Assembly: GCA_016927185.1 (NCBI GenBank)
Contig: JAFGND010000009.1
Location: forward strand, 1-33,194
DNA length: 33,194 bases
Reading direction: 5' to 3'
From: Candidatus Coatesbacteria bacterium
GTDB taxonomy: Bacteria; JAFGND01
The notes below the pieces were generated by a model, which did no database searches, had not been told where the DNA came from, and saw nothing but the letters and a program-made list of their open reading frames with translations. Below are positions 1 to 26,424 of this stretch, piece by piece. Both the position numbers and the translations under genes were made by a program. Numbering within the stretch: the first letter of the stretch is position 1; every line of letters starts with the position of its first letter.

Positions 1-59
1 AAAAATATACAAAATGCTTATTCCATAAGGATTTATAAAGACTAATAGGGAGGTTAAAA

Positions 60-1604
60 ATGAAAAGCATTACAATTTTAATGTTGCTGGGATTAATATC
101 TTCTCTTTTTTCAGCTCCCGGGGATTTAATATGGAGATATAAGACTGGTTTTTTGATTGACTCCTCCCCTTGTGTTTCAGATGGAGTTGTTTATATTGGA
201 AGCTGGGATTATTACCTTTATGCAGTAAACTGTTTAAATGGAACTCTTAAGTGGAGATATCGGACATCTGATAGGATTTACTCTTCACCTTGTGTCTCAG
301 ATGGAGTTGTATATGTTGGAGGTAATGATACTTATCTCTATTCAATAAACAGCGCAGACGGATCCCTTAAATGGAGATATGAAACAGGTAATTGGGTTCG
401 TTCTTCACCTTGTGTTTCAGATGGAGTCGTTTATATCGGTAGTCTAGATAGTTATCTTTATGCAATAAACTGTTCAGATGGAACTCTTAAATGGAGATAT
501 CAGACAGGTGATGATGTTTACTCCTCCCCTTGTGTTTCAGACAGAGTTGTTTATGTTGGGAGTAATGATGATTATCTTTATGCAATAAACTGTTCAGATG
601 GAACCCTTAAATGGAGAGACTGGATAGATTCTTGGGTTGAATCCTCTCCTTGTGTTTCAGAAGGAGTTGTTTATGTTGGAAGCTGGGATTGGTATCTTTA
701 TGCAATAAACTGTTCAGATGGAACTCTTAAATGGAGATATAAGACTGGTTATAAGGTTGACTCTTCTCCTTGTGTTTCAGATGGAGTTGTTTATGTTGGA
801 AGTTGGGATGATTATCTTTATGCAATAAACTGTTCAGATGGAACTCTTAAATGGAGATATCAGACTGGTGGTAGATCTTCTCCTTGTGTTTCAGATGGAA
901 TCGTTTATGTCGGAGGGGGTGTCGGAGCGGGGTATTATCTTTATGCAATAAACTGTTCAGATGGAACTCTTAAATGGAGATATCAGACAAATGGTAATGT
1001 TTCATCTTCTCCTTGTGTTTCAGAAGGAGTTGTTTATGTTGGAAGTTATGATTATTATCTTTATGCTATAGATACTGGAAAACCTGTTATAAAGGTTTAT
1101 TCTCCAAACGGTGGAGAAGAATGGGATATTGGTTCTGTTCATGATATTACATGGACATCATTGAATGTTGATACTGTTTTAGTAAAATTCACTTCAGATG
1201 GTGGAAGCTTATGGACTGAGATTACAAAGATGCCAGCTGATGAAGGCAAATATTCATGGACTATTCCAGATACTCCTTCAGAAAACTGTCTTGTAAGGAT
1301 AGATGATATAAAAGCTAATGCTACTGATACAAGTGACAGTACATTCACTATAAAGAGAGTTGGTTTCCAAGATAACAAATCAACTTCTTATCTTCCTTCC
1401 AAATCCTTTTCAGTTTCTCCCAACCCATTCACTGACAGACTTACGATTTCCCTTCCTTCCTCTGCTTCAATCTATTCCCTTACTGGTCAATTGATTATGA
1501 AACTGGATAAAGGAAAACATTCTCTTGATACTAGCAGCTGGAAACAGGGAGTATATATTGTGAAGAGCGGGAAGGAAACAAAAAGAATAGTAAAGATAAA
1601 CTAG
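60..1604 (+). CDS. Secreted PQQ-like (BamB-type) 8-blade beta-propeller protein with Ig-like domain and T9SS-type C-terminal sorting domain
   Basis: Signal peptide; eight ~40-aa repeats GTLKWRYxTxxxVxSSPCVSDGVVYVGSxDxYLYAINCSD; Ig-like module VYSPNGGE..ITW..YSWTIP..SDSTFTI; tail SVSPNPF..IYSLTGQ..GVYIVK..RIVK; GGGAGG RBS upstream. Confidence 0.88.
   Translation: MKSITILMLLGLISSLFSAPGDLIWRYKTGFLIDSSPCVSDGVVYIGSWDYYLYAVNCLNGTLKWRYRTSDRIYSSPCVSDGVVYVGGNDTYLYSINSADGSLKWRYETGNWVRSSPCVSDGVVYIGSLDSYLYAINCSDGTLKWRYQTGDDVYSSPCVSDRVVYVGSNDDYLYAINCSDGTLKWRDWIDSWVESSPCVSEGVVYVGSWDWYLYAINCSDGTLKWRYKTGYKVDSSPCVSDGVVYVGSWDDYLYAINCSDGTLKWRYQTGGRSSPCVSDGIVYVGGGVGAGYYLYAINCSDGTLKWRYQTNGNVSSSPCVSEGVVYVGSYDYYLYAIDTGKPVIKVYSPNGGEEWDIGSVHDITWTSLNVDTVLVKFTSDGGSLWTEITKMPADEGKYSWTIPDTPSENCLVRIDDIKANATDTSDSTFTIKRVGFQDNKSTSYLPSKSFSVSPNPFTDRLTISLPSSASIYSLTGQLIMKLDKGKHSLDTSSWKQGVYIVKSGKETKRIVKIN
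121..1080 (+). repeat. Eight tandem ~120-bp intragenic repeats (propeller blades)
   Basis: 120-nt periodicity; the 48-mer TATCTTTATGCAATAAACTGTTCAGATGGAACTCTTAAATGGAGATAT is identical at 453, 693, 813 and 936. Confidence 0.97.
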
Positions 1605-1655
1605 TCTTAACATCTAATAGAAAAGGCTTTTCTTGATAGAATAGCTCAATTTTTA

Positions 1656-1743
1656 ACCTCACCCCGTCTTTCAGACTCCCCTCTCCTACAAGGAGAGGGG
1701 TATAGGGGGTGAGGTGTCAACAAAGAGAGGGGTAGGGAGTGAG
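1656..1743. repeat. GC-rich nested inverted repeat (REP-like palindrome) plus a partial second right arm
   Basis: ACCTCACCCC 1656-1665 / GGGGTGAGGT 1706-1715; CCCCTCTCCT 1678-1687 / AGGAGAGGGG 1691-1700 with a 3-nt loop; degenerate arm GAGAGGGGTAGGGAGTGAG 1725-1743. Confidence 0.75.
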
Positions 1744-1858
1744 ATTTCCAACTCAGTCCACCATGTCCCTGAGCTTTTCCAGGTTTGTTTTCATTTTGTC
1801 TTGACACTTGCTTACATAAAAATTCTTATGCCATTATGCATTGTAAGGTAATACTGTA

Positions 1859-3085
1859 TTGAAAATTCTATTCCTGAGTGACAGAGTGCCATATCCTCTT
1901 GATTCTGGGTGCAATATAAGAGGTTATAACATACTGAGGGCAGTTGCAGAGTCTCACGAAATTGACTTTCTGTCTTTCGATGTTCCTGACAATGAATCAA
2001 GCGAACGAATAGCAGGTATTCAAAAAATGTGCAGTCAGGTGACAATTATCCCGAGAAAACCTCAGAAGAAGTGGCAATTATCGCTGCTTGTATTGAAAAA
2101 CCTTTTCGAGGATGATCCACTTTTCTGGATAAGATACAGGCAAAACGAGATGAAAAATGAGCTGGAGAAAATGCTCAGGAAAACTGATTATGATGCAATA
2201 CACTGCGAACATTTGCATATGGCAGGATATTTATCAAATATTTCCCATCCATTCAAGATACTTGATGCCCACCAGATAGAGACAATCCTTCTTTTAAGAT
2301 ATGTAAAACAGGTAAGAAATATTTTCAAGAAGAATGCACTCCTGAAAGAGGCAATAAAACTGAAAAAGTGGGAAACGAAAAAGATAAGTGAATTCTCTGC
2401 AGTGTTGACTGTTTCAAGAAACGAGCAGGAAATACTGAAAAACATGGGTTCCAGAATGTCAGTTCTTGCACCAAATGGGGTTGATCTTGATTATTTCAAT
2501 TTCAGGGAAAAAGAATCTGACGAACCATGCATTGTTTTCACCGGTTCGCTGGCATGGGAACCGAATGTTGATGCAGTTTTATGGTATTACAAATTCATAC
2601 TGCCTTTCGTCAAAGACGTAATCCCTGATGTCAGGTTTCTTGTTGTTGGACAGAATCCTCCTCCTGAAATACTTGCATTGACAAGAGACAAATCCATTAC
2701 AATCACAGGTTATGTCCCTGACATAAGACCATTTCTTGCCAAGGGGACTGTTTTTGCAGTTCCACTGAGAATAGGTGGTGGAACAAGGCTGAAGATACTT
2801 CAGGCTTTTGCTTCAGGTATTCCTGTCTTGTCAACAAGCATAGGAGCAGAAGGTATTGAAGCTACACCTGACAAGGACATAATAATCAAGGACGACATTG
2901 AGGGACTTATTCAATCTACAATAAGTCTTCTTCAGGATGGAGGACTGAGAAAGAGAATTTCACAATCAGCGAGACTGCTTGTAGAGACAAACTATGACTG
3001 GGTACTTATAAGACAGATAGTTGCTGATCTCTACAAGAGAAGAAAAACGATAATTGAAAAGCAGCATCAGGAACAATCCATATAG
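1859..3085 (+). CDS. Glycosyltransferase family 4 (GT-B)
   Basis: MKILFLS..PYPLDSG; PNGVD; FTGSL..PN.DA; VPLRIGGGTRLKILQAFASGIPVLST.IGAEG; TTG start. Confidence 0.9.
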   Translation: MKILFLSDRVPYPLDSGCNIRGYNILRAVAESHEIDFLSFDVPDNESSERIAGIQKMCSQVTIIPRKPQKKWQLSLLVLKNLFEDDPLFWIRYRQNEMKNELEKMLRKTDYDAIHCEHLHMAGYLSNISHPFKILDAHQIETILLLRYVKQVRNIFKKNALLKEAIKLKKWETKKISEFSAVLTVSRNEQEILKNMGSRMSVLAPNGVDLDYFNFREKESDEPCIVFTGSLAWEPNVDAVLWYYKFILPFVKDVIPDVRFLVVGQNPPPEILALTRDKSITITGYVPDIRPFLAKGTVFAVPLRIGGGTRLKILQAFASGIPVLSTSIGAEGIEATPDKDIIIKDDIEGLIQSTISLLQDGGLRKRISQSARLLVETNYDWVLIRQIVADLYKRRKTIIEKQHQEQSI

Positions 3086-3099
3086 AATGAAGGGATTAT

Positions 3100-3588
3100 A
3101 TGAAAAATGAGATAGCATGCCCCAAATGCGGTAATCCAGTAAGTATATACAGAAATCCAATCCCTACAGTGGATTGCATAATAGAGTTGCCATTTATGGG
3201 CAATCCCGCTCCAATAGTCCTTATATCAAGACTTAATCCACCATTCGGATGGGCTATTCCAGGAGGCTTTGTTGATTATGGAGAAAAGGCAGAAGATGCG
3301 AGTGTAAGGGAAGCGCTTGAAGAAACGGGACTTAAAGTCGAACTTGTGGGACTGCTCGGTGTTTATTCTGATCCAGAACGTGATGAAAGGCATCATACAA
3401 TAAGTTCTGTTTATATAGGGATTGCAAACTCCATCCCACAGGCAGGAGACGATGCTTCCCTTGCTGCATGGTTCCAGGAAGACAGCCTGCCTGATGAGAT
3501 TGCATTTGATCACAAGAAGATTCTCAAGGATTATTATGATCTGAGATACAGGACAAAAGATAATCCTCTGTATATAGGCAAGGAATAG
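3100..3588 (+). CDS. NUDIX hydrolase (ADP-ribose pyrophosphatase-like)
   Basis: Nudix box [37 protein letters not shown]. Confidence 0.92.
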
Positions 3589-4284
3589 ATGCGAAGGAAA
3601 TGGAAACTGATTTTATCAGGAGCCAACTATGCAACTTATAACATGGAATTTGATGAAAAGCGCTTCAGAAATGCTTCAAATGATATTCCTTCACTGAGAT
3701 TGTTCTCTTGGAAAAAGCCATCTATAACTATTGGTTATCTTCAGAAAAAAGGGCTGGAAAACTTATATAAACTTGCCTGTCAGCATGATGTTCCTGTTGT
3801 CAGGAGACCAACTGGAGGACGTGCCGTTTATCATGATCGGGAAATCACATATTCCATAGTGCTTCCACCAGATGATGAGCTGTTCAAGATGGGTAATCTG
3901 GAAATCTATGCTGAAATAGCCAGTGTATTCAAGAAAGCTCTTGTTTCTCTCGGAATACCTGCCGTCATAAATCAAAAAGGAAATTTAATGGGCAGCTCTT
4001 CAAGAATCCTTTGTTTTGGCTCAGTTTCTCAATCCGAGATAGAAGTTGAGGGCAGGAAAATTCTCGGAAGTGCCCAGAGAAAGGCTGATTTCGGTTTCAT
4101 TCAGCAAGGATCCCTGCTTCTCAGGGGAACCCAGTCCATACTTGAAGAGCTGGAAGGATATGAGAAACAGCCATTTACAGGTATTTATGAATGGATTGAA
4201 GAAACTGAAGGGATAAAGGACAAGATTATCAAAGTAATAATTAATTCGTTCAAAGAAGCTCTCTACATTGAATGGGAGAAATAA
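3589..4284 (+). CDS. Lipoate-protein ligase / octanoyltransferase (LplA/LipM family)
   Basis: NMxxDE, LRLFSW..PSITIGY.Q, VVRRPTGGRAVYHD.EITYS, GRKILGSAQ, QQGSL. Confidence 0.88.
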   Translation: MRRKWKLILSGANYATYNMEFDEKRFRNASNDIPSLRLFSWKKPSITIGYLQKKGLENLYKLACQHDVPVVRRPTGGRAVYHDREITYSIVLPPDDELFKMGNLEIYAEIASVFKKALVSLGIPAVINQKGNLMGSSSRILCFGSVSQSEIEVEGRKILGSAQRKADFGFIQQGSLLLRGTQSILEELEGYEKQPFTGIYEWIEETEGIKDKIIKVIINSFKEALYIEWEK

Positions 4285-4428
4285 CAATCCAGCAAGGACT
4301 TCATGACATGCTTGTTTTATCTGCTCTGAATATTGATTCTGGATTTGACTGCAAGTTTCTATTGACATAAATCAAGTTTCTTCAAGAGAAATCAATATGC
4401 TTTCAAATCTACTTGAAAAAACAAAAAA

Positions 4429-5517
4429 ATGAGAACAAGAGCTGAATATCTTGCACTAGCTGTCGAGGTTACTCACGAATCAGCAGAGGTTGATTTCAAG
4501 CGGAAGTTTGACGTATTTTCAAAAGAAGACTGGTGCGAAATCCTCAAAGATTTTGCAGCTATGGCAAATTCAGGTGGTGGAATAATAATAATAGGACTGG
4601 AAGACGATTGTTCATTTTCAGGTTATAATGTGGAAGAACTTGTTAAATACGATCCTGCAAAAATTACTGACAAGATTGCCAAATATACAGGAAGGCAGTT
4701 TGCAGATTTCGAGATAGAACAATTCAACAGGGATGGATACAATCTGGCTATCATGATAATTTATGATGCCTTGGTCCCGCTTATTTTTACAAAACCTGGA
4801 GTATATCAGGTCGACAGGAAATATAAAACTGCATTCAAGGAAGGAACCATATATTTCAGGCACGGTGCAAAAAGCGAGCCTGGAGATTCGGATGATTTGC
4901 GTTCTGCAATAGAAAGGGAAGTTGAAAGGCAGAGAAAAATATGGCTAGGAAATGTTCGGGAAAGTCCTGACATATTTGACGTAATGGCTGAAATCAAGTC
5001 AAGGACAGTGCCGCTTTCCCAGTCAATTGCTGAAACTCTTATTATTGCACTTAAACTCAATAATTACGAGCTTGAAAGATTCTGCAGGAATGAACTTACT
5101 GGATGGACTAAGGATGCCCTGCAGGAACTTGATGAACACAAGGATCCCCAGCCAACCTACAGATTGATAGATGGATATGTCTCAATGAATACCAATGTCA
5201 ATCTTGAGACAAAGCTGGGAAGCTCCTTGACATTGTTTCATTACATGAAAAAAAATCCAGACAAATTCCTGCCTTATGCAATGTTCATAAAAGAATCTGT
5301 TTCAAAGATAGAAGCAAAACAGCCAACTTCTGATAATAATGAAGGAATTATCACAATAACTTTTACCCAGAAGGAAATAAATCACAAATCACAGACTCCT
5401 GATGCTCCTGCCTACGTATATTTCAAGGCAGATGCCTATGGAAAGGTTCTTAAATCAATTAGATCAGAGCTTATAAGAAGACTTCTTGATCTTCTGCCAA
5501 AACTGGGAATAGAATAA
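4429..5517 (+). CDS. Schlafen/AlbA_2-domain protein with C-terminal AbiTii-like domain
   Basis: N-term ESAEVDFK and AAMANSGGGIIIIG (AlbA_2); C-term PLSQSIAETLIIALKLNNYELERFCRNELTGW..PTYR..ESVSKIE..VLKSIRSELIRRL resembles AbiTii. Confidence 0.75.
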   Translation: MRTRAEYLALAVEVTHESAEVDFKRKFDVFSKEDWCEILKDFAAMANSGGGIIIIGLEDDCSFSGYNVEELVKYDPAKITDKIAKYTGRQFADFEIEQFNRDGYNLAIMIIYDALVPLIFTKPGVYQVDRKYKTAFKEGTIYFRHGAKSEPGDSDDLRSAIEREVERQRKIWLGNVRESPDIFDVMAEIKSRTVPLSQSIAETLIIALKLNNYELERFCRNELTGWTKDALQELDEHKDPQPTYRLIDGYVSMNTNVNLETKLGSSLTLFHYMKKNPDKFLPYAMFIKESVSKIEAKQPTSDNNEGIITITFTQKEINHKSQTPDAPAYVYFKADAYGKVLKSIRSELIRRLLDLLPKLGIE

Positions 5518-6113
5518 TGCTTGGAATAGGAATTCTTGTATCTCATGGTGGATCAAATATGCAGAAAATAATAGAGAACTGCAGGAATGGCTATATAAAT
5601 GGGAAGGTAACAGCTATTGTATGCAATAACAGGAACGCTAATGCCATCAGGATTGCTGAAGACAATAATATCAAGCTGAAAATTCTCAATGATGAGAAAT
5701 TTCCTGTCCAGGAAGAGCTTGACTTTGCTATTGCAGAATATTTCTTGACGCAAGAAGCTGAACTTGTAGCAATGGCAGGCTATATGAAGTACAGAGGTCC
5801 GGGATTTCTGAAAATGTTGAGAAAGCGTGTTACAAATATCCACCCGGCATTACTCCCAAAATATGGAGGAAAAGGCTTTTTTGGCAAATCTGTTCATGAA
5901 GCAGTTATCCGCTCAAAAGATGCTGAAACAGGTGTAACAATCCACTGGGTAGATGATATTTACGATCACGGGAATATAATAAGGCAGGAAAAAATAAAAG
6001 TGCTTGAAAATGATACTGCTGAAACCCTTGGAAAGAGAGTGTTAGAACTGGAACATAGATTATATAGTGAAGTTTTAAAGGATATTGCGCTTGGGATAAT
6101 CCCAATGCCATAA
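5517..6113 (+). CDS. purN: Phosphoribosylglycinamide formyltransferase
   Basis: SHGGSNMQ, AGYM, NIHPALLPKYGG.G, VH.AV, TGVTIHWVD..YDHG.II.Q. Confidence 0.95.
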   Translation: MLGIGILVSHGGSNMQKIIENCRNGYINGKVTAIVCNNRNANAIRIAEDNNIKLKILNDEKFPVQEELDFAIAEYFLTQEAELVAMAGYMKYRGPGFLKMLRKRVTNIHPALLPKYGGKGFFGKSVHEAVIRSKDAETGVTIHWVDDIYDHGNIIRQEKIKVLENDTAETLGKRVLELEHRLYSEVLKDIALGIIPMP

Positions 6114-6130
6114 GCTTCAAGGAGAGGAAA

Positions 6131-7408
6131 ATGGCAAATCTATATGAAATTCTTGGGGTAAAGGAAAATGCATCTCCACAAGAGATAAAGCAAGCCTATT
6201 TCAAAGCTATAAGAAAATTCCCGCCAGAAAAATTCCCTGAAGAGTTCAGAAAAGTAAGGCAGAGTTACGAAATCCTGAAAAATACTCAGACAAGACAGCA
6301 ATATGATCATCTGAATAATTACGGACCGGAACTGAAACGAAGGCTAACTAGCGGGTTAACTTTGCTTGAAAACCAGGATTTCAGCAGAGCTATTACCGAG
6401 TTCCAGTCTCTTCTGAATGAATATCCTGATGCTACTTTCATAAGGCATTATCTCGGTCTCTCATTCCTGTACAATCAGATGTATCTTGAATCAATGATGG
6501 AGTATGAAACCCTTACTGGCATTGATCCATCAAACAGGGTATTCTGGCAGAATCTTGGAAGATCACAGCTTGGTATTGGACAGAGTGAAGCTGCCATAGA
6601 TTCATTCGAGAAAGCCTATCAGATAGATCCGACGGAGGCTGGTATTGTGCTTGACTATATTGAGATTCTTGTTGATGGTGAGAACTACTCGAGAGCTGAA
6701 GAAATACTCATCTCCAGAATAAGGGAGCTTAATGAAGGTGATTTCGAGATGTTCGTATATCTCTTCCCGCTGGTAAGGCTTTATGGGCTGCAGGATTCAC
6801 AGGACAAGGTAGAGGCAACAATAGCAAAAATCAGGGAGAACATTCCTTCGGATCAGGAAACAAAGAATTATGTAGGCTTGAAACTTGCCCAGCTTGCGCA
6901 ATTGCTTTTCAAGACTAAGTTATTCCATCTTGCAAAGCAGATCTCGCTTGAAGCCAAGGAAATAAGCCCCAATAATCCATTGATACAGGATCTGTATGAA
7001 GATGCATTTGAAAGAGATTCTCTTGAAAGAGACCTTAAGCATCTGTATGAAGACAAAGATATTCCAGCCCAGGTCAAGGACTTGTGCCATTTCTTTTATG
7101 ACAAGTCAACTACCGGTGAAAACAGAGATAACTGGCAGAACAAGGTACTTGAAGAATTGAAGGATGTACCGAAAGAGCATCTATTGAATGCCATATACAA
7201 GATAAAGACTGATTACAAGCATATATATGAGACAAATGAGGATTTCTTTGAATATTACATTTCTGCAGAACTGGGTGGAGATAGCGAACAGATAAAAAGC
7301 GTTAAGGATTATTGCAAGAAATGTGGCAATAATGCAACTGAAAGTTATCTGGCATCACATGGTGGATATTGCCCTGTTTGCTTCAGGGAAGAAAAAGGCA
7401 AGTCTTAG
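6131..7408 (+). CDS. Atypical J-domain + TPR protein with C-terminal Zn-ribbon
   Basis: NLYEILGV..ASPQEIKQAY..(PPE in place of HPD)..F..V.QSYEIL..RQQYD; TPR-like helices; CKKC..CPVC at C-terminus. Confidence 0.82.
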   Translation: MANLYEILGVKENASPQEIKQAYFKAIRKFPPEKFPEEFRKVRQSYEILKNTQTRQQYDHLNNYGPELKRRLTSGLTLLENQDFSRAITEFQSLLNEYPDATFIRHYLGLSFLYNQMYLESMMEYETLTGIDPSNRVFWQNLGRSQLGIGQSEAAIDSFEKAYQIDPTEAGIVLDYIEILVDGENYSRAEEILISRIRELNEGDFEMFVYLFPLVRLYGLQDSQDKVEATIAKIRENIPSDQETKNYVGLKLAQLAQLLFKTKLFHLAKQISLEAKEISPNNPLIQDLYEDAFERDSLERDLKHLYEDKDIPAQVKDLCHFFYDKSTTGENRDNWQNKVLEELKDVPKEHLLNAIYKIKTDYKHIYETNEDFFEYYISAELGGDSEQIKSVKDYCKKCGNNATESYLASHGGYCPVCFREEKGKS

Positions 7409-7448
7409 GAAAACAGGCTTGCAAAAACTTGATTTTTTACCATAAATA

Positions 7449-8879
7449 ATGGCTAATATTCTATTCGTACAGGACTTCTGGTTTGAATACCTGGGACCAA
7501 TTTATATTTCTGAGCAGCTTGAAATAAATGGTCACAGTGTTGACGTAATTGTAGAAGCGGATCATTCAAGACTTATAAAAAAGCTGAAGCCTTTCAATCC
7601 AGATATTATAGCTTTTTCCTGTACAACAGGAACTCATAGATGGGTTGTTCAGGCAGCCAATCTCTTGAAGAAATTATTCCCTGATGTGCTTACTATAGTA
7701 GGTGGGGCACATGCTACTTTCTTTCCTGAATTCATAGAGAATGAAGGAATTGACGTCATATGCAGGGGTGAGGGAGAAGAAGCAATAGTAGATTTTATCA
7801 ATGCCTTTGAAAAAAAGGAGGATTATTCAACTATCAGGAATTTGTGGGTTAAGAAACCTGATGGCGAGATAATCAAGAATGATGTGAGAAATCTGATTGA
7901 AGACCTGGATTCCCTTCCATTCAATAGACGAAGGTTATACAGGAATATAAAGTTACTTAGACAGAGTCCAAACAAGCATTTCCTTACAGGAAGGGGTTGC
8001 CCCTATGATTGTTCATTCTGCTTCAATCACAAGAGCAAGGAATTATACAAGAACAAGGGCAGCTATCTGAGAAGACACTCTGCTGAAAGAGTGATTGAAG
8101 AAATAGAATATGTAAAGAAAAATTATGGTTTGAAAAGTGTCAGATTTGACGATGATTTGTTCATTCTCAACAAGAAATGGCTGATTGATTTTCTCGAGAT
8201 TTATGCAAAAAGGATAAGACTGCCTTTCTTCTGTCTCGTGAGAGCTAATCTTCTGACAGATGAAATAGCTGAAGCACTTGGCAAAAGTGGATGCTCAAGT
8301 GCCTATTTCGGAATAGAAAGTGGTAATGATTTTCAGAGAAATGAAGTATTAAGAAAAAATATAAGCAAGGATCAGATAATAAACTGCTCCAATCTCTTGA
8401 AGAAATATAAAATTAAAACAGGCACTTTCAATATGCTTGGATTGCCAGGGGAAACAATCGAGCAGGCATTCGAAACTGTCCATATAAATCAGGAATTGAG
8501 AAATGAATTTGTATGGGTCAGTCTTGTCCAGCCCTACCCCAGAACTGCTCTTGCTGAATATTGCATGAAACATGAGTATATAGATAGCGAGATTTCCCTT
8601 GATAAAATCCACAGCAGCTATTTCAAGCAGAGTGTTCTAAAAAATCCCGAAAAAAACCAGCTTGATAATCTCCACAAGCTGGTTTTTATTGCAGTGAGAT
8701 ATCCTTCACTTGAGAAAATTATTAGAAAGCTCATAAAGATTAAACCAAATCTCGTATTTGATCTTATATTCTACCTTTTCTATACCAGAAGATATATGAA
8801 AACTTATCATATGCCATTCTGGAGAGTAATCTTGACAGGCTTGAGAAGCAAGACACATCTTAAAAGGCAAAAAAACTAG
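7449..8879 (+). CDS. Cobalamin-binding radical SAM protein
   Basis: GGAHATF.P, GEGE (B12-binding); GRGCPYDCSFC; FDDD.F; FGIESG; MLGLPGET. Confidence 0.92.
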   Translation: MANILFVQDFWFEYLGPIYISEQLEINGHSVDVIVEADHSRLIKKLKPFNPDIIAFSCTTGTHRWVVQAANLLKKLFPDVLTIVGGAHATFFPEFIENEGIDVICRGEGEEAIVDFINAFEKKEDYSTIRNLWVKKPDGEIIKNDVRNLIEDLDSLPFNRRRLYRNIKLLRQSPNKHFLTGRGCPYDCSFCFNHKSKELYKNKGSYLRRHSAERVIEEIEYVKKNYGLKSVRFDDDLFILNKKWLIDFLEIYAKRIRLPFFCLVRANLLTDEIAEALGKSGCSSAYFGIESGNDFQRNEVLRKNISKDQIINCSNLLKKYKIKTGTFNMLGLPGETIEQAFETVHINQELRNEFVWVSLVQPYPRTALAEYCMKHEYIDSEISLDKIHSSYFKQSVLKNPEKNQLDNLHKLVFIAVRYPSLEKIIRKLIKIKPNLVFDLIFYLFYTRRYMKTYHMPFWRVILTGLRSKTHLKRQKN

Positions 8880-9995
8880 ATGATTTCAATATTGATAGTA
8901 TTCTGCTGCATCCTGTCTTATAATAATGAAGCAGAATCCAGGAAATTTCTTATCAGAAATCTGCGTTTCCCTCATGAGGCATTGCTTTTAAAAGATGCTG
9001 ATGAAAATACTTTTAACAGGAGGCTTGCAGGCAGTTTCTCAGGAGCTGTTGCAACAGTGTGGGAGTATGGAAAGGAAGATATAACAATATCAGCAGGTAT
9101 GGCTGAGATAACAGACAGTATAAGGTTTATGACAAGAGACACATACTTTGATCTTGCCTCTCTTACCAAGCAGTTATGCACTGCTCCATTGATACTTATG
9201 CTTGCAGATAAAGGCAGGTTATCCTTGAATGATAATCTAAAAAACCATTTCAAGGAATTCGTTGATACTCCTTATGCACAAACAACCATATATGAACTTC
9301 TTGCCCATAAAAGCAAAATAATCTCACACTACAGATTTTTCAGATATAATATTGAAAGGGAAAAACTCATTGAATTCCTGTCCAGGGAGAAACCTTTAAA
9401 AAAGAGTATATACAGCGATTTAAATTATATAATTCTTGGGATGCTTCTTGAGAAAATAGAGGGGGAAAAACTTGATAAACTATTTGATGAAAAAATAGCA
9501 AAACCCTTGAATCTCAGCATTACATTCAATCCTGATGAAAAGATGGATATTGCTTCTTCCCAGTATTGCAGATGGAGGAGAAGACAATTAAGAACAACTG
9601 AAGTTCATGATGAAAATGCATGGTTCTGGAATAACATCAATGGACATGCTGGCTTGTTTGGAAATGCATCAGATATTGCAAATTTAATGTCAGCATACAT
9701 GGGATATTCCAGAAACCTTTTTTTTTCTCCCTTTACATTAAATAGATTATTATCATATTCTGGCAATAAAACAGATATAGCATTAGGTTTCAAATCAAAC
9801 AAGAATAGCATGGCAGCAAAAAATCTTGGTAAATATGCAATTGGGCATACCGGTTATACTGGTTCATCAATATGGATGGAGCATTCAAGAGGATTGGTTG
9901 TAGTATTATTAACCAATAGCCTTCATCCTTCTTATCACAGAAACATCAATAATATCAGAAAAGAATTCCATGATATGATATTAAGAAAGGAGTGA
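8880..9995 (+). CDS. Serine hydrolase, beta-lactamase class C / PBP-like family
   Basis: FDLASLTK (SxxK), LLAH.S, YSD.NY, VHDENA, GHAGLFG, GHTGYTG, VLLTN. Confidence 0.88.
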   Translation: MISILIVFCCILSYNNEAESRKFLIRNLRFPHEALLLKDADENTFNRRLAGSFSGAVATVWEYGKEDITISAGMAEITDSIRFMTRDTYFDLASLTKQLCTAPLILMLADKGRLSLNDNLKNHFKEFVDTPYAQTTIYELLAHKSKIISHYRFFRYNIEREKLIEFLSREKPLKKSIYSDLNYIILGMLLEKIEGEKLDKLFDEKIAKPLNLSITFNPDEKMDIASSQYCRWRRRQLRTTEVHDENAWFWNNINGHAGLFGNASDIANLMSAYMGYSRNLFFSPFTLNRLLSYSGNKTDIALGFKSNKNSMAAKNLGKYAIGHTGYTGSSIWMEHSRGLVVVLLTNSLHPSYHRNINNIRKEFHDMILRKE

Positions 9996-11569
9996 CTATC
10001 AACAAGGCAAGAATTCTCTGGGTAGATGATGAGATTGACATTCTCACTGCCCATATAAGATTTCTCAACAAGAGAGGTTATGAAGTAGATAGTATAAATA
10101 ATGGTCATGATGCTTTGTATCACCTTCAGAAACAGACTTATGATATAATATTTCTGGATCAAGCTATGCCAGGTCTGGATGGGCTAGAGACGCTTGAAGA
10201 AATAAGAAAAATCAATCCGCAAATTCCTGTTGTAATGATAACAAAAAATGAAGAAGAGCATCTGATGGCAGAAGCTATTGGCAAGGAGATAAATGATTAT
10301 CTTACCAAACCTGTCAATCCAAGCCAGATACTGCTCGTTCTCAAAAAGCTTCTTGAAAGCAAAAATATCAAGAAAAATCTTGCAGGGAAAAACTTCTCCA
10401 AGCTTTTCAAGGATATCACAGACAGGCTGGAAACACCTCTTACATCAAATGATTGGTACGAAATATATCTTCAGATTACACTTTTCGAGTTAGAAATGTC
10501 ACAAATAATGAATGACGAAATAAAGGAATCTTTCCATGGACTTATAGAAACCTGCAATGAATATTTTGGTCATTTCATAGAAGAGAATTATCTTACATGG
10601 CTTGAAGAACAAAAACAGCCTGTGCTTAGCAACAAAGTATTCTCCACTTTTGTCTCTCCTTTCATCAAGAAAGGTCAGAAAGTCATAATGATGCTTATAG
10701 ATTGCCTCAGACTGGATCAATGGTATGCAATTTCCGAGATCCTGTCTGAATACTTCAACATAGAACAGCATCATTACTATTCAATACTACCTACCTCAAC
10801 TGCATATTCAAGGAACTCGTTATTTTCTGGTTTGCTCCCTATTGATATTTATTCAAGATATCCACAATACTGGGAAGTACTTAAGGATGAAAGATCAGTA
10901 AACAAGTATGAAAAAGAACTTCTTAGAGAGCAATGCTTGAGATTGGGACTGGATAAGGCTCAAGAGAATATTTTCTACCTCAAGATAATAAACGAGGAGA
11001 AGGTGGAGGGCTTGATAAAGCATTATGAGAAGAATATTCACAAATACCAGTTGTCTGCTTTTGTTTATAATTTTGTTGATCTTCTAAGCCATAATAGATC
11101 GCACTCAGATCTTATCAGAGAGATATCAACAGATGAAAGTGCTTTCAGATCAGTCACTGTTTCATGGTTTCAGCATAGCGGCATGTATACCCTGTTGAAG
11201 CATCTTTCTGAAATGAAGGATATATGCATAGTTCTTACAACTGATCATGGAAGCATTCTTGCAAGAAAACCCTCCAAAATAATCGCTTCATGGAATGCCA
11301 CTTCAGGTCTCAGATACAAGTTTGGTCATGCTCTTGAGACAAAGCCAAAAGAAGCTCTGGTTATCAAGAATCTTACACAATTTAAACTTCCAAAGGAAGA
11401 AGATAAACCTGAATGTATTCTTGCAAAAAGTGATTATTATCTTACATACAATATAGGGTTCAAGAATTTCATAGAAAATTACAAACCTTCATTTATTCAT
11501 GGTGGAATTTCACTTCAAGAAATGATATTACCTATTGCTGTTATGAGTTCTAAAAAGCATAATGCATAA
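9992..11569 (+). CDS. porX: PorX-family response regulator (REC + PglZ/alkaline-phosphatase domain)
   Basis: ILWVDDE..LDQAMPGLDG..VVMITKNEEE..YLTKPVNP; IDCLRLDQW; SILPTSTAYSRN; TTDHG; HGGISLQEMILP; GTG start. Confidence 0.88.
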   Translation: MTINKARILWVDDEIDILTAHIRFLNKRGYEVDSINNGHDALYHLQKQTYDIIFLDQAMPGLDGLETLEEIRKINPQIPVVMITKNEEEHLMAEAIGKEINDYLTKPVNPSQILLVLKKLLESKNIKKNLAGKNFSKLFKDITDRLETPLTSNDWYEIYLQITLFELEMSQIMNDEIKESFHGLIETCNEYFGHFIEENYLTWLEEQKQPVLSNKVFSTFVSPFIKKGQKVIMMLIDCLRLDQWYAISEILSEYFNIEQHHYYSILPTSTAYSRNSLFSGLLPIDIYSRYPQYWEVLKDERSVNKYEKELLREQCLRLGLDKAQENIFYLKIINEEKVEGLIKHYEKNIHKYQLSAFVYNFVDLLSHNRSHSDLIREISTDESAFRSVTVSWFQHSGMYTLLKHLSEMKDICIVLTTDHGSILARKPSKIIASWNATSGLRYKFGHALETKPKEALVIKNLTQFKLPKEEDKPECILAKSDYYLTYNIGFKNFIENYKPSFIHGGISLQEMILPIAVMSSKKHNA

Positions 11570-12332
11570 AATGAATAGCTCCAGCAAAAATGTACTGATA
11601 AAGGTAAGCGATCTTTACAGGAATTTTGAAGATAACAGCGTTTTGCAGGGAGTCAATCTTAATATTTATGAAGGTGAAACACTTGTAATAATAGGCGGAT
11701 CAGGAAGCGGGAAAAGTGTATTACTAAAGCATTTAATAGGTCTGCTTAAACCAGAAAAAGGTGAAGTAGAAGTTGAAGGCATAAAAATGAGCTCTGTCAA
11801 ACAGAAGGATCTTTTCAGGATAAGAAGGAAATTCGGCATGCTTTTTCAGGGAGCTGCATTGTTTGATTCATTGACTGTATGGGAAAATGTAGGTTTAGGA
11901 TTGATTGAGCATGAAAATATGAAGAAAAAGGAGATTCTACCAATAGTAAAAGAAAAACTTGCTATGGTCGGAATGTCAGGCATTGAGGAACTGAAACCTG
12001 CTGAATTGTCAGGTGGAATGAAAAAAAGGGTTGGATTGGCAAGAGCAATAGCAATGAATCCGGAAATAATCCTCTATGATGAACCAACAACTGGTCTTGA
12101 TCCCATCATGAGTGATGTAATAAACAAGCTTATTCGCAAATTGCAGAAAACACTTAATGTTACAAGCATTGTAGTAACTCATGACATGAAAAGTGCCTAC
12201 CATGTAGGGGACAGAATGGCAATGCTTTATGAAGGAAAAATCATTTTCGATGGAAGCATAGAGAATATCAAGACTTCAGAAAATCCTTTCATACGTGATT
12301 TTATTGAAGGAAAAAGTGAAGAAGAAATATGA
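11562..12332 (+). CDS. mlaF: ABC transporter ATP-binding subunit, MlaF/Mkl family
   Basis: Walker A GGSGSGKS; GMLFQGAALFDSLTV; LSGGMKKRVGLARA; YDEPTTGLDP; next to an MCE gene. Confidence 0.88.
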   Translation: MHKMNSSSKNVLIKVSDLYRNFEDNSVLQGVNLNIYEGETLVIIGGSGSGKSVLLKHLIGLLKPEKGEVEVEGIKMSSVKQKDLFRIRRKFGMLFQGAALFDSLTVWENVGLGLIEHENMKKKEILPIVKEKLAMVGMSGIEELKPAELSGGMKKRVGLARAIAMNPEIILYDEPTTGLDPIMSDVINKLIRKLQKTLNVTSIVVTHDMKSAYHVGDRMAMLYEGKIIFDGSIENIKTSENPFIRDFIEGKSEEEI

Positions 12333-23134: not shown

Positions 23135-24484
23135 ATGACCGAACCGAGAGTAGCAATAGTAATAGTCACATGGAACAAGAAGGACTATCTTATAAACCTT
23201 CTTGAAAGCCTCAGGGAAATAGACTATCAGAATTTTTCGATTATCCTTGTAGATAATGCTTCAACTGATGGAACTGCAGAATACGTCAAGGAGCATTTCC
23301 CTGATATTACATTGCTCCTTCAGAAAGAGAATATTGGTGGAACTGGTGGTTTCAATGCAGGAATGACTTACGTTGTTAAGCAGGGAAAACATGATTATGT
23401 ATGGTTGCTTGATAATGATGTAAAAGTGGAAAAAGATGCATTAAGAAATCTTGTCTTGGCACTCGAAAACAGGCTTGATTCAGCGGTAGCTGGTTCTGTG
23501 ATAAGGAATATGGATTTCCCTGATTTTACTGTTTCAGCTGGGGGAAATCTTGATGAAAAGAACATGATCCCTGTAAACAGAGAGAGGAATTCCGTTTATA
23601 TTTCTAGTAATGGTATTATTGAAGTAGAGTATGCACCCTCATGTTCTTTCCTGACAAGAGTTAAAATAATAAAAGAAATAGGAATTTTTGATGAAAATTT
23701 CTTCTTGAATCTTGATGACATTGAATGGACAATGAGAGTAAGTTGGGCAGGTTATAAAGTATTAATAGTTAGAAATTCAGTTATATACCATCCGTCATTC
23801 TGGGAAAAGGGTACAAATCTTGTTTATATATATTATCAGAGAAGAAACAGACTTTATTTTGCTTTGAAATATATTAAAAAAGGCAATTTTAGACCAGTTT
23901 TTAGAATACTCTTAGGACTGTATTGGTTAAAGTATCAGTCAGAAGAAAAAAGAGACGGCTTATTTGCAAGTGTAGTAGAAAAAATAATAGAAGATATTAA
24001 GAGCTCAAAAATGGGAAGAATCGAAAATTATAATTTCTCACCAAGTAAACAAGTTAAACTAGTAAAATGGAATAATATCTGTGAGATTATAAAGAATAAA
24101 AAATTGCTTATTCTTCCAACAGTAAAAGGGGATGATATAAAATCCTGGTATAATAATTTGAAACAGGAAGTATCTTTAGAAAACGTGTTTCTGGGAGTGG
24201 AAAAAGACAGGAGGAAGTGCCTTTCTTCTTTTGCATTTAAATACATTGATTATGCAGAAAGTAGTTTTTTTAAAAAATTCCTTATTTCTTTTGGAAAGAT
24301 TGCTATCATTTCTCAAGAAACTGATAAATCAGAAAGCTTGTTTAATATTGGTCTTTTGCCTGTAGAAGAGGGAGTTTTGGTTTTTCAAGGAAGCAAGACA
24401 AACTGGTTAGTAACGTTTATAAAAGCGTTTTTCAAGGCATTTTCAGAAACAAGATACCTTTTAAGGAATAATCCATTTAAATAA
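23135..24484 (+). CDS. Glycosyltransferase family 2 with C-terminal extension
   Basis: IVIVTWN, VDNASTDGT, N.GGTGGFNAG, LLDND, FDE.FFL..DDIEW..R, YY..RN. Confidence 0.92.
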   Translation: MTEPRVAIVIVTWNKKDYLINLLESLREIDYQNFSIILVDNASTDGTAEYVKEHFPDITLLLQKENIGGTGGFNAGMTYVVKQGKHDYVWLLDNDVKVEKDALRNLVLALENRLDSAVAGSVIRNMDFPDFTVSAGGNLDEKNMIPVNRERNSVYISSNGIIEVEYAPSCSFLTRVKIIKEIGIFDENFFLNLDDIEWTMRVSWAGYKVLIVRNSVIYHPSFWEKGTNLVYIYYQRRNRLYFALKYIKKGNFRPVFRILLGLYWLKYQSEEKRDGLFASVVEKIIEDIKSSKMGRIENYNFSPSKQVKLVKWNNICEIIKNKKLLILPTVKGDDIKSWYNNLKQEVSLENVFLGVEKDRRKCLSSFAFKYIDYAESSFFKKFLISFGKIAIISQETDKSESLFNIGLLPVEEGVLVFQGSKTNWLVTFIKAFFKAFSETRYLLRNNPFK

Positions 24485-26424
24485 TGCATCTGCTATTCTT
24501 ACAGCTTCCCATTCCGTCACTTCAATTCGGGATTACCAGAGAAAATGTTCCCCTTGCGTCTGCCAAACTGGCTTCGTATATTAGCTCAAGATTCAGAGAT
24601 ATCAAGATATCGCTGATGGACAGGACTTTGCAGGATACTTTGTCTGATGAAGGAATGATTGAAGCAATACTCAAGCATGATCCCGATGTAATCGGTTTCA
24701 CAAGTTATCTATGGAATATTGAGAGGAGCTTGTTCATAGCTGGAAAAATCAAATCCCTGAATCCTCAGATAATAACTATATTTGGAGGTCCTGAAATAAC
24801 AAATGATAATGAATGGATTTTAAATAATCCAGCAGTTGATCTGGCAGTTATGGGTGAAGGAGAGATAGCTCTCGAAGAGATTATTGGAAAACTGTTATGC
24901 AATGACAGGGATTACTTTGAAGCAGCTCAGTACAAAGTCAGGAAAGGCATGCTTGAATTGAATTATCTTCATGATTTAAGTATGATATCATCTCCATATC
25001 TGAATAGCATACTGGAGAGAAGATATGATGATTGCATGTATCTTGAGACTCAAAGAGGTTGCCGCTTCAATTGCTCATATTGTGAATATTCCCATTTCTC
25101 TGGCAAAATCAGGTTTTTTCCGAAAAAAGAAGTTGAAATGCACATTAAGAAAGCTATAGAGAAAGGTTATAAGGAACTGTTCATACTTGATCCAACAATG
25201 AATGCAAGAAGTGATATTCATGAGTTTCTTGAAGTAATAGCATTATCTAATCAGGGAATACTTGAATTGTATGGAGAGCTGATAGCTGAGCTGCTTGACA
25301 ATAAGCAAGTTGATCTTCTTGCAAAAGCGAATTTCAAGGAACTTGAGATTGGTCTTCAGACAATAAACAAGAACTCACTGAAAGCAATCTGCAGAAGTTT
25401 CAACAAGAGAAAATTTCTAGATGGAGTCTTCAAGCTGAAAGAGGCAGGTATAAGGGCAAAGATAGATATCATAATAGGACTTCCTGAAGATGATCTTTCC
25501 TCATTCAAGGAAACATGCAATTTCATATACAAAAACGATATTTTTGATGATATCCAGTTATTCATACTCTCTGTTCTTCCTGGAACCAGACTGAGAAGGG
25601 AAGCGGGAAAATCAGGTATATCTTTTCAGGACAAGCCTCCCTATTATGTCATAGAAACTGACAGGTTTTCGCGAAGAGACATGGAAAAAGCAATTCATGT
25701 TGCGGAGGATCTTTTCGAGATGGATCTCATTACTTTGTCTGATCCAGTATTCCCTGTATCGGAAGTTTTTTCTGAAAGAAAATATATAAGCCATTTCAGG
25801 GCAGATTGCAGCATCCTGAAAGTTGAAATCCCAGATAAAGCTAATCATTTTACTGTCTTTGTTTCAGTGAAAAGCCTTCTGTCAGGTAACATCATTTCTG
25901 TAATATCTTCCCATTTTACCTGTAACCCACATATTCCTCTTCAGATATTCTTCGAGATGGATAGTGAATTGGAGATTAACGAAATAGAAAGAAAACTGGC
26001 AATTCTGCCTTTTCCTGAAAGAGGGTTTCTTGACAGGGATCTTCAGGCAATTGTTGGAGATAACTCACATCTATATCTTCAATACAAATTTCTTGTCTAT
26101 CAGGGCAGTCCGTTTGATACAGATGAAATAAGTAATCTCACAGACATTGCACCGGCTTATATGTCAGTAAGGGACAGCATTAAATCAATAGAATATCACT
26201 TGAAAAAAACTTCTTTAAAAAAGATGTCAGGGTTATGGTATGAACCTTTGGAAAAATTCGAAGACAGCTTTTCTTACATGCTTGAATCTCTTTATGAAAC
26301 TACATTATCACTGGATATCAGCCTGGATTTCAAGGATTGTATCTGGCAGATGGAATGGAATAATATAAGGGAAACAGAGTATATTTATCAACCAGTATTT
26401 ATCAATCAATGTCACAAGGAATGA
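24484..26424 (+). CDS. Cobalamin-binding radical SAM protein with long C-terminal extension
   Basis: GFTSYLWN, GGPE, GEGE, SPY, ETQRGCRFNCSYC, EIGLQT, IIGLP.D, VLPGT. Confidence 0.9.
   Translation: MHLLFLQLPIPSLQFGITRENVPLASAKLASYISSRFRDIKISLMDRTLQDTLSDEGMIEAILKHDPDVIGFTSYLWNIERSLFIAGKIKSLNPQIITIFGGPEITNDNEWILNNPAVDLAVMGEGEIALEEIIGKLLCNDRDYFEAAQYKVRKGMLELNYLHDLSMISSPYLNSILERRYDDCMYLETQRGCRFNCSYCEYSHFSGKIRFFPKKEVEMHIKKAIEKGYKELFILDPTMNARSDIHEFLEVIALSNQGILELYGELIAELLDNKQVDLLAKANFKELEIGLQTINKNSLKAICRSFNKRKFLDGVFKLKEAGIRAKIDIIIGLPEDDLSSFKETCNFIYKNDIFDDIQLFILSVLPGTRLRREAGKSGISFQDKPPYYVIETDRFSRRDMEKAIHVAEDLFEMDLITLSDPVFPVSEVFSERKYISHFRADCSILKVEIPDKANHFTVFVSVKSLLSGNIISVISSHFTCNPHIPLQIFFEMDSELEINEIERKLAILPFPERGFLDRDLQAIVGDNSHLYLQYKFLVYQGSPFDTDEISNLTDIAPAYMSVRDSIKSIEYHLKKTSLKKMSGLWYEPLEKFEDSFSYMLESLYETTLSLDISLDFKDCIWQMEWNNIRETEYIYQPVFINQCHKE

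Follow-up and report, generated by a model that had tools for sequence, protein, structure and literature searches.

The Schlafen-AbiTii Fusion Gene and Its Surroundings

The sequence analyzed here, referred to as the window, is a 33,194-nucleotide stretch of contig JAFGND010000009.1 from a Candidatus Coatesbacteria bacterium (assembly GCA_016927185.1). At positions 4429..5517 on the + strand, it contains an intact reading frame of 362 codons followed by a TAA stop. The protein, P0001, is a fusion of a Schlafen domain and an AbiTii domain. Its head module (residues 1–178, 4429..4962, +) consists of a Schlafen/AlbA_2 nuclease domain and a C-terminal helix (approximately residues 154–174) ending in WLGNVRE. 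In the sequence of this module, the catalytic motif E17-x4-D22-x-K24 is found at 4477..4500 (+) and is followed by R25. The tail module (residues 181–362, 4969..5514, +) is an AbiTii-type alpha+beta domain, based on Pfam, PADLOC, and an AlphaFold2 (AF2) model. The ends and starts of homologue alignments place the chimera junction between them at residues E178-S179-P180 (4960..4968, +). In the 2.99-Mb assembly, which is 93% complete, searches with P0001 itself, with PF04326, and with PF18864 all hit the fusion gene alone.

The two flanking genes are housekeeping genes on the same strand. The upstream neighbor (3589..4284, +) encodes an LplA/B-type lipoate/octanoyl ligase catalytic domain (Pfam PF21948, E = 8.8e-25). 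The downstream neighbor (5517..6113, +) encodes a PurN-like formyltransferase (Pfam PF00551, E = 2e-42). Neither of the two genes has a PADLOC match. The stop of the fusion gene and the start of purN overlap by one base in TAATG (5515..5519, +; TAA at 5515–5517 and ATG at 5517–5519). An earlier note on this DNA, made from the letters alone, had described this housekeeping setting and overlap correctly.

The intergenic region of 144 nucleotides upstream of the fusion gene (4285..4428, +) is presumed to contain its promoter and 5' untranslated region. A sigma-70 scan gave no site within this region, and the 17 sites seen over 3000–7600 are not above the 13.8 ± 3.8 seen in shuffled sequences. Just 5' of the start codon, the stretch 4419–4426 carries about 12 extra bases, in differing versions, in the X2, X3, and X4 contigs. 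These insertions indicate that the untranslated leader differs among populations, with a nearly identical coding region.

The Schlafen Head

Pfam assigns residues 17–151 to PF04326 (SLFN_AlbA_2) with E = 8.8e-14 and 52.5 bits, against a cut-off of 25.3. In the six-frame search of the genome, the score of the same family is 54.7 bits. The motifs H16-E17-S-A-E-V-D22-F-K24-R25 and AMANSGGGIIIIG are both present in the head. A sequence search of the PDB with the protein gave no match at E ≤ 10, and the NCBIfam search gave nothing meaningful.

The head and the tail were modeled separately, each from its own alignment. The AF2 model of the head (residues 1–184, alignment of 48 sequences) has a predicted local distance difference test (pLDDT) score of 94.0 and a predicted template modeling (pTM) score of 0.87. 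A Foldseek search of the PDB with this model returned 29 matches at E ≤ 0.001, including SLFN5/11/12/13/14 and the tRNase domain of SAMD9. The best match is the bacterial AlbA_2 protein DIP2311 (3lmm; E = 1.4e-7, template modeling (TM) score 0.54 by query). Entries with DNA/RNA-binding titles, 7q3z and 6rr9, and the DNA-binding domain of SAMD9, 7ksp, are also among the matches.

According to the main text of PMC13056530, prokaryotic Schlafens carry the motif Ex4(E/D)xK. Among 48 aligned members of the head family, E17 is conserved in 46, either D or E is found at position 22 in 47, and K24 is conserved in all 48. The other 47 rows of this alignment are 41–54% identical to the head of P0001, and the similarity includes the helix ending in WLGN(I/V)R. 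In CbCash, E17, D22, and K24 form a Mg2+ center, R25 lines the pocket, and mutants lose tRNA cleavage, as reported in PMC13462974. The triad and R25 of P0001 have the same residue numbers as this center. The head is a nuclease domain of the Schlafen fold, and its metal-dependent catalytic center, E17/D22/K24, is intact.

The AbiTii Tail

In the Pfam search with the whole protein, PF18864 (AbiTii) matches residues 191–355 with E = 8.3e-7 and 29.8 bits, barely above the cut-off of 27.6. The tail alone scores 32.3 bits against the same family, and the AbiTii model of PADLOC matches residues 186–356 (E = 7e-8). When 14 aligned tails of the subfamily were compared with Pfam, 12 matched PF18864 and no other family at E ≤ 0.01, with the best E of 9e-11. 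Because of these 12 matches, the membership of the tail subfamily in AbiTii holds despite the marginal single score.

The invariant positions of the subfamily are F218, C219, E222, Y244, R245, E295, R345, and E347; E216 is present in 13 of the 14 members. AbiTii has been described as an alpha+beta domain of approximately 180 amino acids with a highly conserved glutamate (PMC3710099). The AF2 model of the tail (residues 176–362, 14 sequences; pLDDT 88.9, pTM 0.84) is also an alpha+beta structure, with helices and four strands. A Foldseek search with this model found no PDB match at E ≤ 0.001 and no solved structural relative, the best TM score being 0.24. The ESM Atlas gave leads only: a structure TM score of 0.62 to an AbiTii cluster and feature scores of 0.79. 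A two-copy complex prediction of the tail scored 0.22 against a mark of 0.42, which has no bearing either way on self-association. The tail, residues 181–362, is an AbiTii-type domain.

These results agree with the earlier note, which had recognized a Schlafen/AlbA_2 head from its motifs and an AbiTii-like tail.

The Junction and a Second Fusion Protein

The switch of domains after WLGNVRE, at residue 178 (nucleotides 4960–4962), had also been pointed out from the letters, and the homologues locate it at the same position. When 1.84 billion cluster representatives were searched exhaustively with a profile, 1435 hits at E ≤ 0.001 were obtained. Among the best 150 of these 1435 hits, 149 stop aligning near residue 178 (a few at up to about residue 210), and only one, P0002, aligns to the end of the protein. 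In the alignments of the relatives of each module, the last residue of the head family is R177, and the first residues of the tail family are D181-I182.

P0001 and P0002 are 59% identical over their full length and have an identical junction. The number of identical residues is 106 of 178 in the head and 106 of 184 in the tail; both halves are equally conserved. All catalytic residues and all invariant tail residues are shared. The same junction and the equal identity of the two halves therefore point to a single fusion event, which would be older than the split of P0001 and P0002, with both halves kept since then. Two metagenome scans were run for the contig of P0002; the first returned nothing, and the second returned only L003, a member of the head family.

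Two Donor Families

The head family includes 729 proteins in a word-indexed search. Among 185,579 species genomes, 229 relatives of the head were found at 39–55% identity, and their record titles indicate many phyla, including archaea. For the clustering of tails, 268 proteins of the head family were collected; 253 of them contain the junction, and 221 have enough tail after the trimming of the shared linker. The tails of 184 of the 221 are restriction endonuclease (REase)-like, as seen by the match of PF18740 on P0006. Tails of approximately 245 amino acids without a Pfam match are seen in 22 of the 221 and represent a third, unannotated type (e.g., P0030 and P0039, proteins of about 420 amino acids). 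The third-ranked cluster has seven of the 221, and four further clusters have 2, 2, 1, and 1. The AbiTii tail is present in two of the 221, P0001 and P0002. P0001 has no PF18740 match at E ≤ 1 in the Pfam search.

The tail family is composed of 22 clusters, with TIR as the head in 16 of them (TIR_2, E = 1.7e-31 in P0121). The remaining clusters are two Schlafen fusions, one protein with another head (P0122), one solo protein of 203 amino acids, and two truncated proteins. The head of P0122 is HNH-like by eye only; Pfam on the whole of P0122 at E ≤ 0.1 gives AbiTii alone. P0001 has no TIR match, its head being Schlafen.

These facts indicate that P0001 is a rare chimera, whose head is from the Schlafen-REase-like family and whose tail is from the TIR-AbiTii family. 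The head donor, the uncharacterized single-gene family Schlafen-EC042_2821 REase-like, shares with the fusion the head at 41–54% identity, and both stand alone with no conserved neighbor. They differ past residue 178, where the donor family has the shared linker and either the REase-like or the ~245-amino-acid tail, while the fusion has AbiTii. The tail donor, the uncharacterized TIR-AbiTii family, is 32–50% identical to the fusion tail over its whole length and shares the invariant positions LERFC..EL, YR, E295, and R345-x-E347-L...LLDLLP. It differs in having a TIR head in place of Schlafen.

A collection of 199,900 species contains no second genome of this phylum besides the source assembly. 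The 40 nearest genomes, all of them from other families, contain no match stronger than a weak one in a single genome (E = 9.9e-4). A hidden Markov model (HMM) of the fusion tail, searched over 81 head-family loci, matched only in the window itself. A 6-sequence HMM of canonical AbiTii is too weak for this 81-locus check, as it misses the fusion tail itself at E ≤ 1.

Split Counterparts in Other Loci

A search for AbiTii in 401 genomes of one phylum found a single locus, L086, which is too few for frequencies. In this locus from an unrelated genome (1-3564; G130:C5:88520-92083), genes for DUF4145/HEPN, Schlafen, AbiTii, and a tyrosine integrase are arranged in this order on one strand. The DUF4145/HEPN gene (3..344) is open at its 5' end. 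The Schlafen gene (473..1132) matches Pfam at E = 7.6e-11, has its own Ex4DxK motif, and gives an hhalign probability of 97.8% against the head family. The AbiTii gene (1444..2397) is canonical (Pfam E = 1.2e-39), and its hhalign comparison with the fusion-tail family gives E = 7.5e-5 and a probability of 62%. The tyrosine integrase gene is at 2664..3245. The Schlafen and AbiTii pair of L086 is a two-gene form of the fusion.

A tblastn search with the canonical AbiTii of L086 matched 141 plasmid records, 62 of them conjugative. One plasmid of Lactococcus lactis, NZ_CP129293.1, contains two adjacent, divergent genes in locus L087 (1330-3376): an annotated TIR-domain gene (1563-2240, −) and an AbiTii-like gene (2477-3376, +). 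Genes for an Fst toxin, a recombinase, and an IS3 transposase are close by on the plasmid. The TIR/AbiTii-like pair is a split counterpart of the TIR-AbiTii fusions.

Six AbiTii loci were inspected, which are too few for frequencies. An adjacent Schlafen gene is seen in one (L086), an adjacent TIR gene in one (L087), and HEPN nearby in two (L086 and L088). In the published AbiTii fusions, AbiTii is N-terminal and the HEPN RNase domain is C-terminal (PMC3710099). From the fusions and the neighbors with TIR, Schlafen, and HEPN, it follows that AbiTii keeps company with several unrelated effector domains. Effector partners of several unrelated kinds typically mark a module for sensing or regulation, and this pattern suggests such a role for AbiTii.

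Comparison with Known Systems

Prokaryotic Schlafen defense proteins have been described by Perez Taboada et al. (Nat Microbiol 2026, PMC13056530). RorSlfn5, one of their proteins, recognizes a phage protein through its C-terminal domain and cuts the anticodon arms of tRNAs with its head, as stated in the main text. Like the fusion, RorSlfn5 and the proteins pSlfn1-55 of that study combine, in a single polypeptide, an N-terminal single-lobe Schlafen nuclease domain with Ex4(E/D)xK and a non-catalytic domain at the C-terminus. The tails of pSlfn proteins named there are Ig-like, HisKinase, HTH, DUF5929, DUF262, and TBP-like, whereas the tail of the fusion is AbiTii, the fusion gene has no defense neighbors, and its activity is predicted. 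The word "AbiT" is absent (0 occurrences) from the main texts of PMC13056530 and its preprint; Supplementary Table 2, with the 55 domain compositions, is outside this count.

CbCash (Nat Commun 2026, PMC13462974) has E17, D22, K24, and R25 at the same residue numbers as the fusion. It is reported as a Mg2+-dependent endonuclease of the T-loop and anticodon loop of tRNAs, regulated by the oligomeric state of its fused domain. CbCash differs in that its fused domain is the Rossmann-like Csx15, a cyclic tetra-adenylate sensor, and in that it depends on type III CRISPR (clustered regularly interspaced short palindromic repeats); the fusion has an AbiTii tail. No CRISPR or cyclase gene is found among the Pfam and PADLOC results of the window.

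The AbiTii domain is common to the lactococcal abortive-infection system AbiT (AbiTi and AbiTii) and to the tail of the fusion, although the latter is only a marginal match. According to a 2026 review (PMC13064643), AbiTii of AbiT works with a partner predicted to be nuclease-like, and escape mutations, cited by the review, are in the major capsid protein as well as in hypothetical proteins. AbiT differs from the fusion in that it has two genes and in that AbiTi superimposes on the YicC RNase 8VER (78 of 286 amino acids; PMC13064643) and not on a Schlafen. The idea of an AbiTi and AbiTii fusion, with the lactococcal AbiTi being Schlafen-like, was considered and rejected because the reported structural match of AbiTi, 8VER, is the YicC RNase of E. 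coli, as given in PMC11417398.

The AbiTii-HEPN fusions of the c2405 and Ymh families (Anantharaman et al. 2013, PMC3710099) resemble P0001 in that AbiTii is joined to a predicted RNase toxin domain. They are different in order and in effector: there, an N-terminal AbiTii precedes a HEPN RNase; here, a Schlafen RNase precedes a C-terminal AbiTii.

The class itself, a Schlafen tRNase with a fused sensor as a single-gene defense, is already known from the main text of PMC13056530. The literature searched (main texts) contains no description of a Schlafen joined to AbiTii, of AbiTii at the C-terminus, of the TIR-AbiTii family, or of Schlafen and AbiTii as adjacent genes. The author of the earlier note did not know this domain order as a described system, and a fusion with AbiTii was indeed found in no paper, the search being one of which Supplementary Table 2 of PMC13056530 was not a part.

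Possible Function of the Fusion

With moderate confidence, we regard the fusion as a one-protein, phage-triggered growth-arrest system (abortive-infection type) of the prokaryotic Schlafen class, with AbiTii as the sensor or regulator. The AbiTii tail would be the sensing or regulating part, which holds the nuclease inactive as long as no phage product is present. After the cue, the Schlafen heads would assemble, as in other Schlafens acting as dimers or higher oligomers. The assembled heads would cut tRNA loops, translation would stop, and the phage yield would drop. By analogy with AbiT only, the cue could be a structural or an early phage protein. This silent-until-cue model is based on the two 2026 Schlafen studies and on the pattern of partners of the tail. 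Of seven Schlafen fusions tested in PMC13056530, two gave E. coli protection, and trigger specificity is determined by the fused Ig-like domain, according to its main text. An RNase effector joined with an AbiTii sensor for single-gene abortive infection had been proposed in the earlier note. Its domain calls and junction are right, and the class now has a published precedent; the part on a captured insert is not supported, nor is the one on defense islands, as described below.

Several observations weigh against a role in defense. No biochemical function has been shown for any AbiTii domain in the literature examined, and the AbiTii membership of P0001 alone appears marginal, with 29.8 bits against the cut-off of 27.6; P0002 alone, with 22.2 bits, is below it. 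There is no defense island in the window: every PADLOC match except the AbiTii of the fusion gene traces to generic folds. A tblastn search with the whole protein against plasmids and phages gave no match. In addition, while 69.6% of prokaryotic Schlafens are within 10 kb of a defense gene, the remaining 30.4% are not and may be non-immune, as stated in the main text of PMC13056530.

The neighbors of the head family are a further point against a role in defense. No neighbor family recurs in more than three of 80 loci, and the 148 nearest open reading frames (ORFs) of 37 head-family loci are mostly housekeeping singletons, as judged from the best 25 of 143 families. Hints of defense or mobility among these best 25 are N6_Mtase (3), ResIII (3), DEAD (3), SNF2 (2), HEPN (2), and rve_3 (2). 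The head family therefore has the behavior of a lone gene that transfer has scattered widely. Its enrichment in defense islands, raised in the earlier note, is weak in this sample of 37 loci.

The main rival, favored by the genomic setting, is a resident, non-immune RNase. Here the head would process or degrade cellular tRNA or rRNA under the regulation of AbiTii, and the gene would be co-expressed with purN in a housekeeping operon. We consider this unlikely as a whole, while several features fit it. The gene is a part of a co-directional housekeeping array, and its GC content of 0.385, GC content at third codon positions (GC3) of 0.331, and codon-usage distance of 0.154 are within the range of its neighbors. 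Such native composition and the one-base overlap with purN also fit a resident cellular function. In four runs belonging to two other studies, contigs match parts of the locus, mostly with 95–99% identity, and no indel is listed inside the gene. X2 pieces bridge 4081-4495 and 5087-5576, which are both junctions of the gene with its neighbors, in the same arrangement. No joint skipping the fusion gene was seen in the four runs, although these contigs cannot prove the absence of gene-less variants. Besides, no tRNA, integrase, or defense gene other than the fusion gene is found in the window. The composition, the lack of mobile and defense genes, and the bridged junctions together speak against the captured solitary insert proposed earlier from the letters.

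What makes the resident RNase unlikely is the distribution of its parts. Both modules are patchy and chimeric like accessory genes, and the exact fusion is present in two clusters only. The head family has 229 relatives in the 185,579 species genomes, and the relatives of the tail are mostly TIR-headed. The split form in L086 is beside an integrase gene and a HEPN gene. Nothing stronger than the E = 9.9e-4 mentioned above is seen in the 40 nearest genomes.

Quite improbable is a reversal or doubling of the roles, in which the AlbA_2/Schlafen head would mainly sense by binding nucleic acids, and the toxic step would fall to the AbiTii tail or a partner recruited by it. The DNA/RNA-binding entries 7q3z, 6rr9, and 7ksp among the structural matches of the head would fit this arrangement. 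So would the usual tail of the head family, which is REase-like (184/221) and could itself be an effector, and the lactococcal AbiTii, which is without a predicted HEPN domain in the review PMC13064643, yet AbiT is a two-component system. The triad is, however, kept in nearly all members of the head family, which argues for catalysis and not for binding alone. The other partners of the tail, TIR and HEPN, are effector domains, so the tail would be the constant non-effector part. The model of the tail matches no known enzyme fold.

A leftover without current function, either domesticated or decaying and retained by chance, is a very improbable reading: the gene is solitary and rare, but its 362-codon frame is intact, P0002 at 59% identity has kept both halves and the key residues equally, and the contigs of the four runs cover its parts at near identity without an indel.

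A rare chimera of this kind suggests that AbiTii is a plug-in module serving several kinds of suicide enzyme. An extended version is that AbiTii is a portable, effector-agnostic activation module, one sensing or assembly domain connected with four or more killing domains of unrelated kinds. This is possible but rather doubtful. It is based on the partners in cis, which are HEPN (published), Schlafen, and TIR, and on the partners in trans, which are the YicC-like AbiTi (published), Schlafen (L086), and TIR (L087). If it is true, the fusion and the split pair of L086 would tie Schlafen tRNases to the AbiT mechanism, and one class of phage trigger, for example the capsid protein, would fire all AbiTii-linked effectors.

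Prokaryotic Schlafen tRNases were shown as immune effectors only in 2026 (main text of PMC13056530). The fusion joins them with AbiTii, and its junction is resolved to three residues. Together with the TIR-AbiTii relatives and the split pair, it offers ready-made constructs to ask whether AbiTii is a sensor, what it senses, and whether it drives unrelated effectors. A gene of this kind can sit in a housekeeping array, with native composition and a one-base overlap with purN. Scans based on defense islands would miss genes placed in this way.

Other Genes in the Window

Pfam finds only domains of the housekeeping type among the neighbors of the fusion gene in the window, and five of the 27 neighboring ORFs are without a match or unscanned. 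The domains include glycosyltransferases, NUDIX, the ligase-domain protein, PurN, DnaJ-TPR, two B12-radical SAM enzymes, and a beta-lactamase-fold protein. A PglZ response regulator, an ABC ATPase followed by MlaD, Dus, M48 and S41 peptidases, and a histidine kinase are also present, as are BacA-TPR, a cytidylyltransferase-like protein, and MurJ.

The B12-binding radical SAM paralogues (7449-8879 and 24484-26424) match the PADLOC candidate PDC-M51A (E = 1.5e-10 and 3.2e-44, respectively). These matches probably reflect a generic fold rather than defense genes. The PglZ-domain response regulator (9992-11569) matches the PglZ models used for bacteriophage exclusion (BREX) systems. We take it to resemble PorX, the regulator of type IX secretion. 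The ABC ATPase adjoining MlaD (11562-12332) matches mad3, mad8, AriA, HEC-02A, and AbiLi. The PglZ regulator and the ABC ATPase are housekeeping proteins that light up defense models.

At the start of the window (60-1604), a beta-propeller protein has very similar repeats (…SSPCVSDGVVYVGS.D.YLYAIN..DGTLKWRY…) and a C-terminal sorting domain of type IX secretion.

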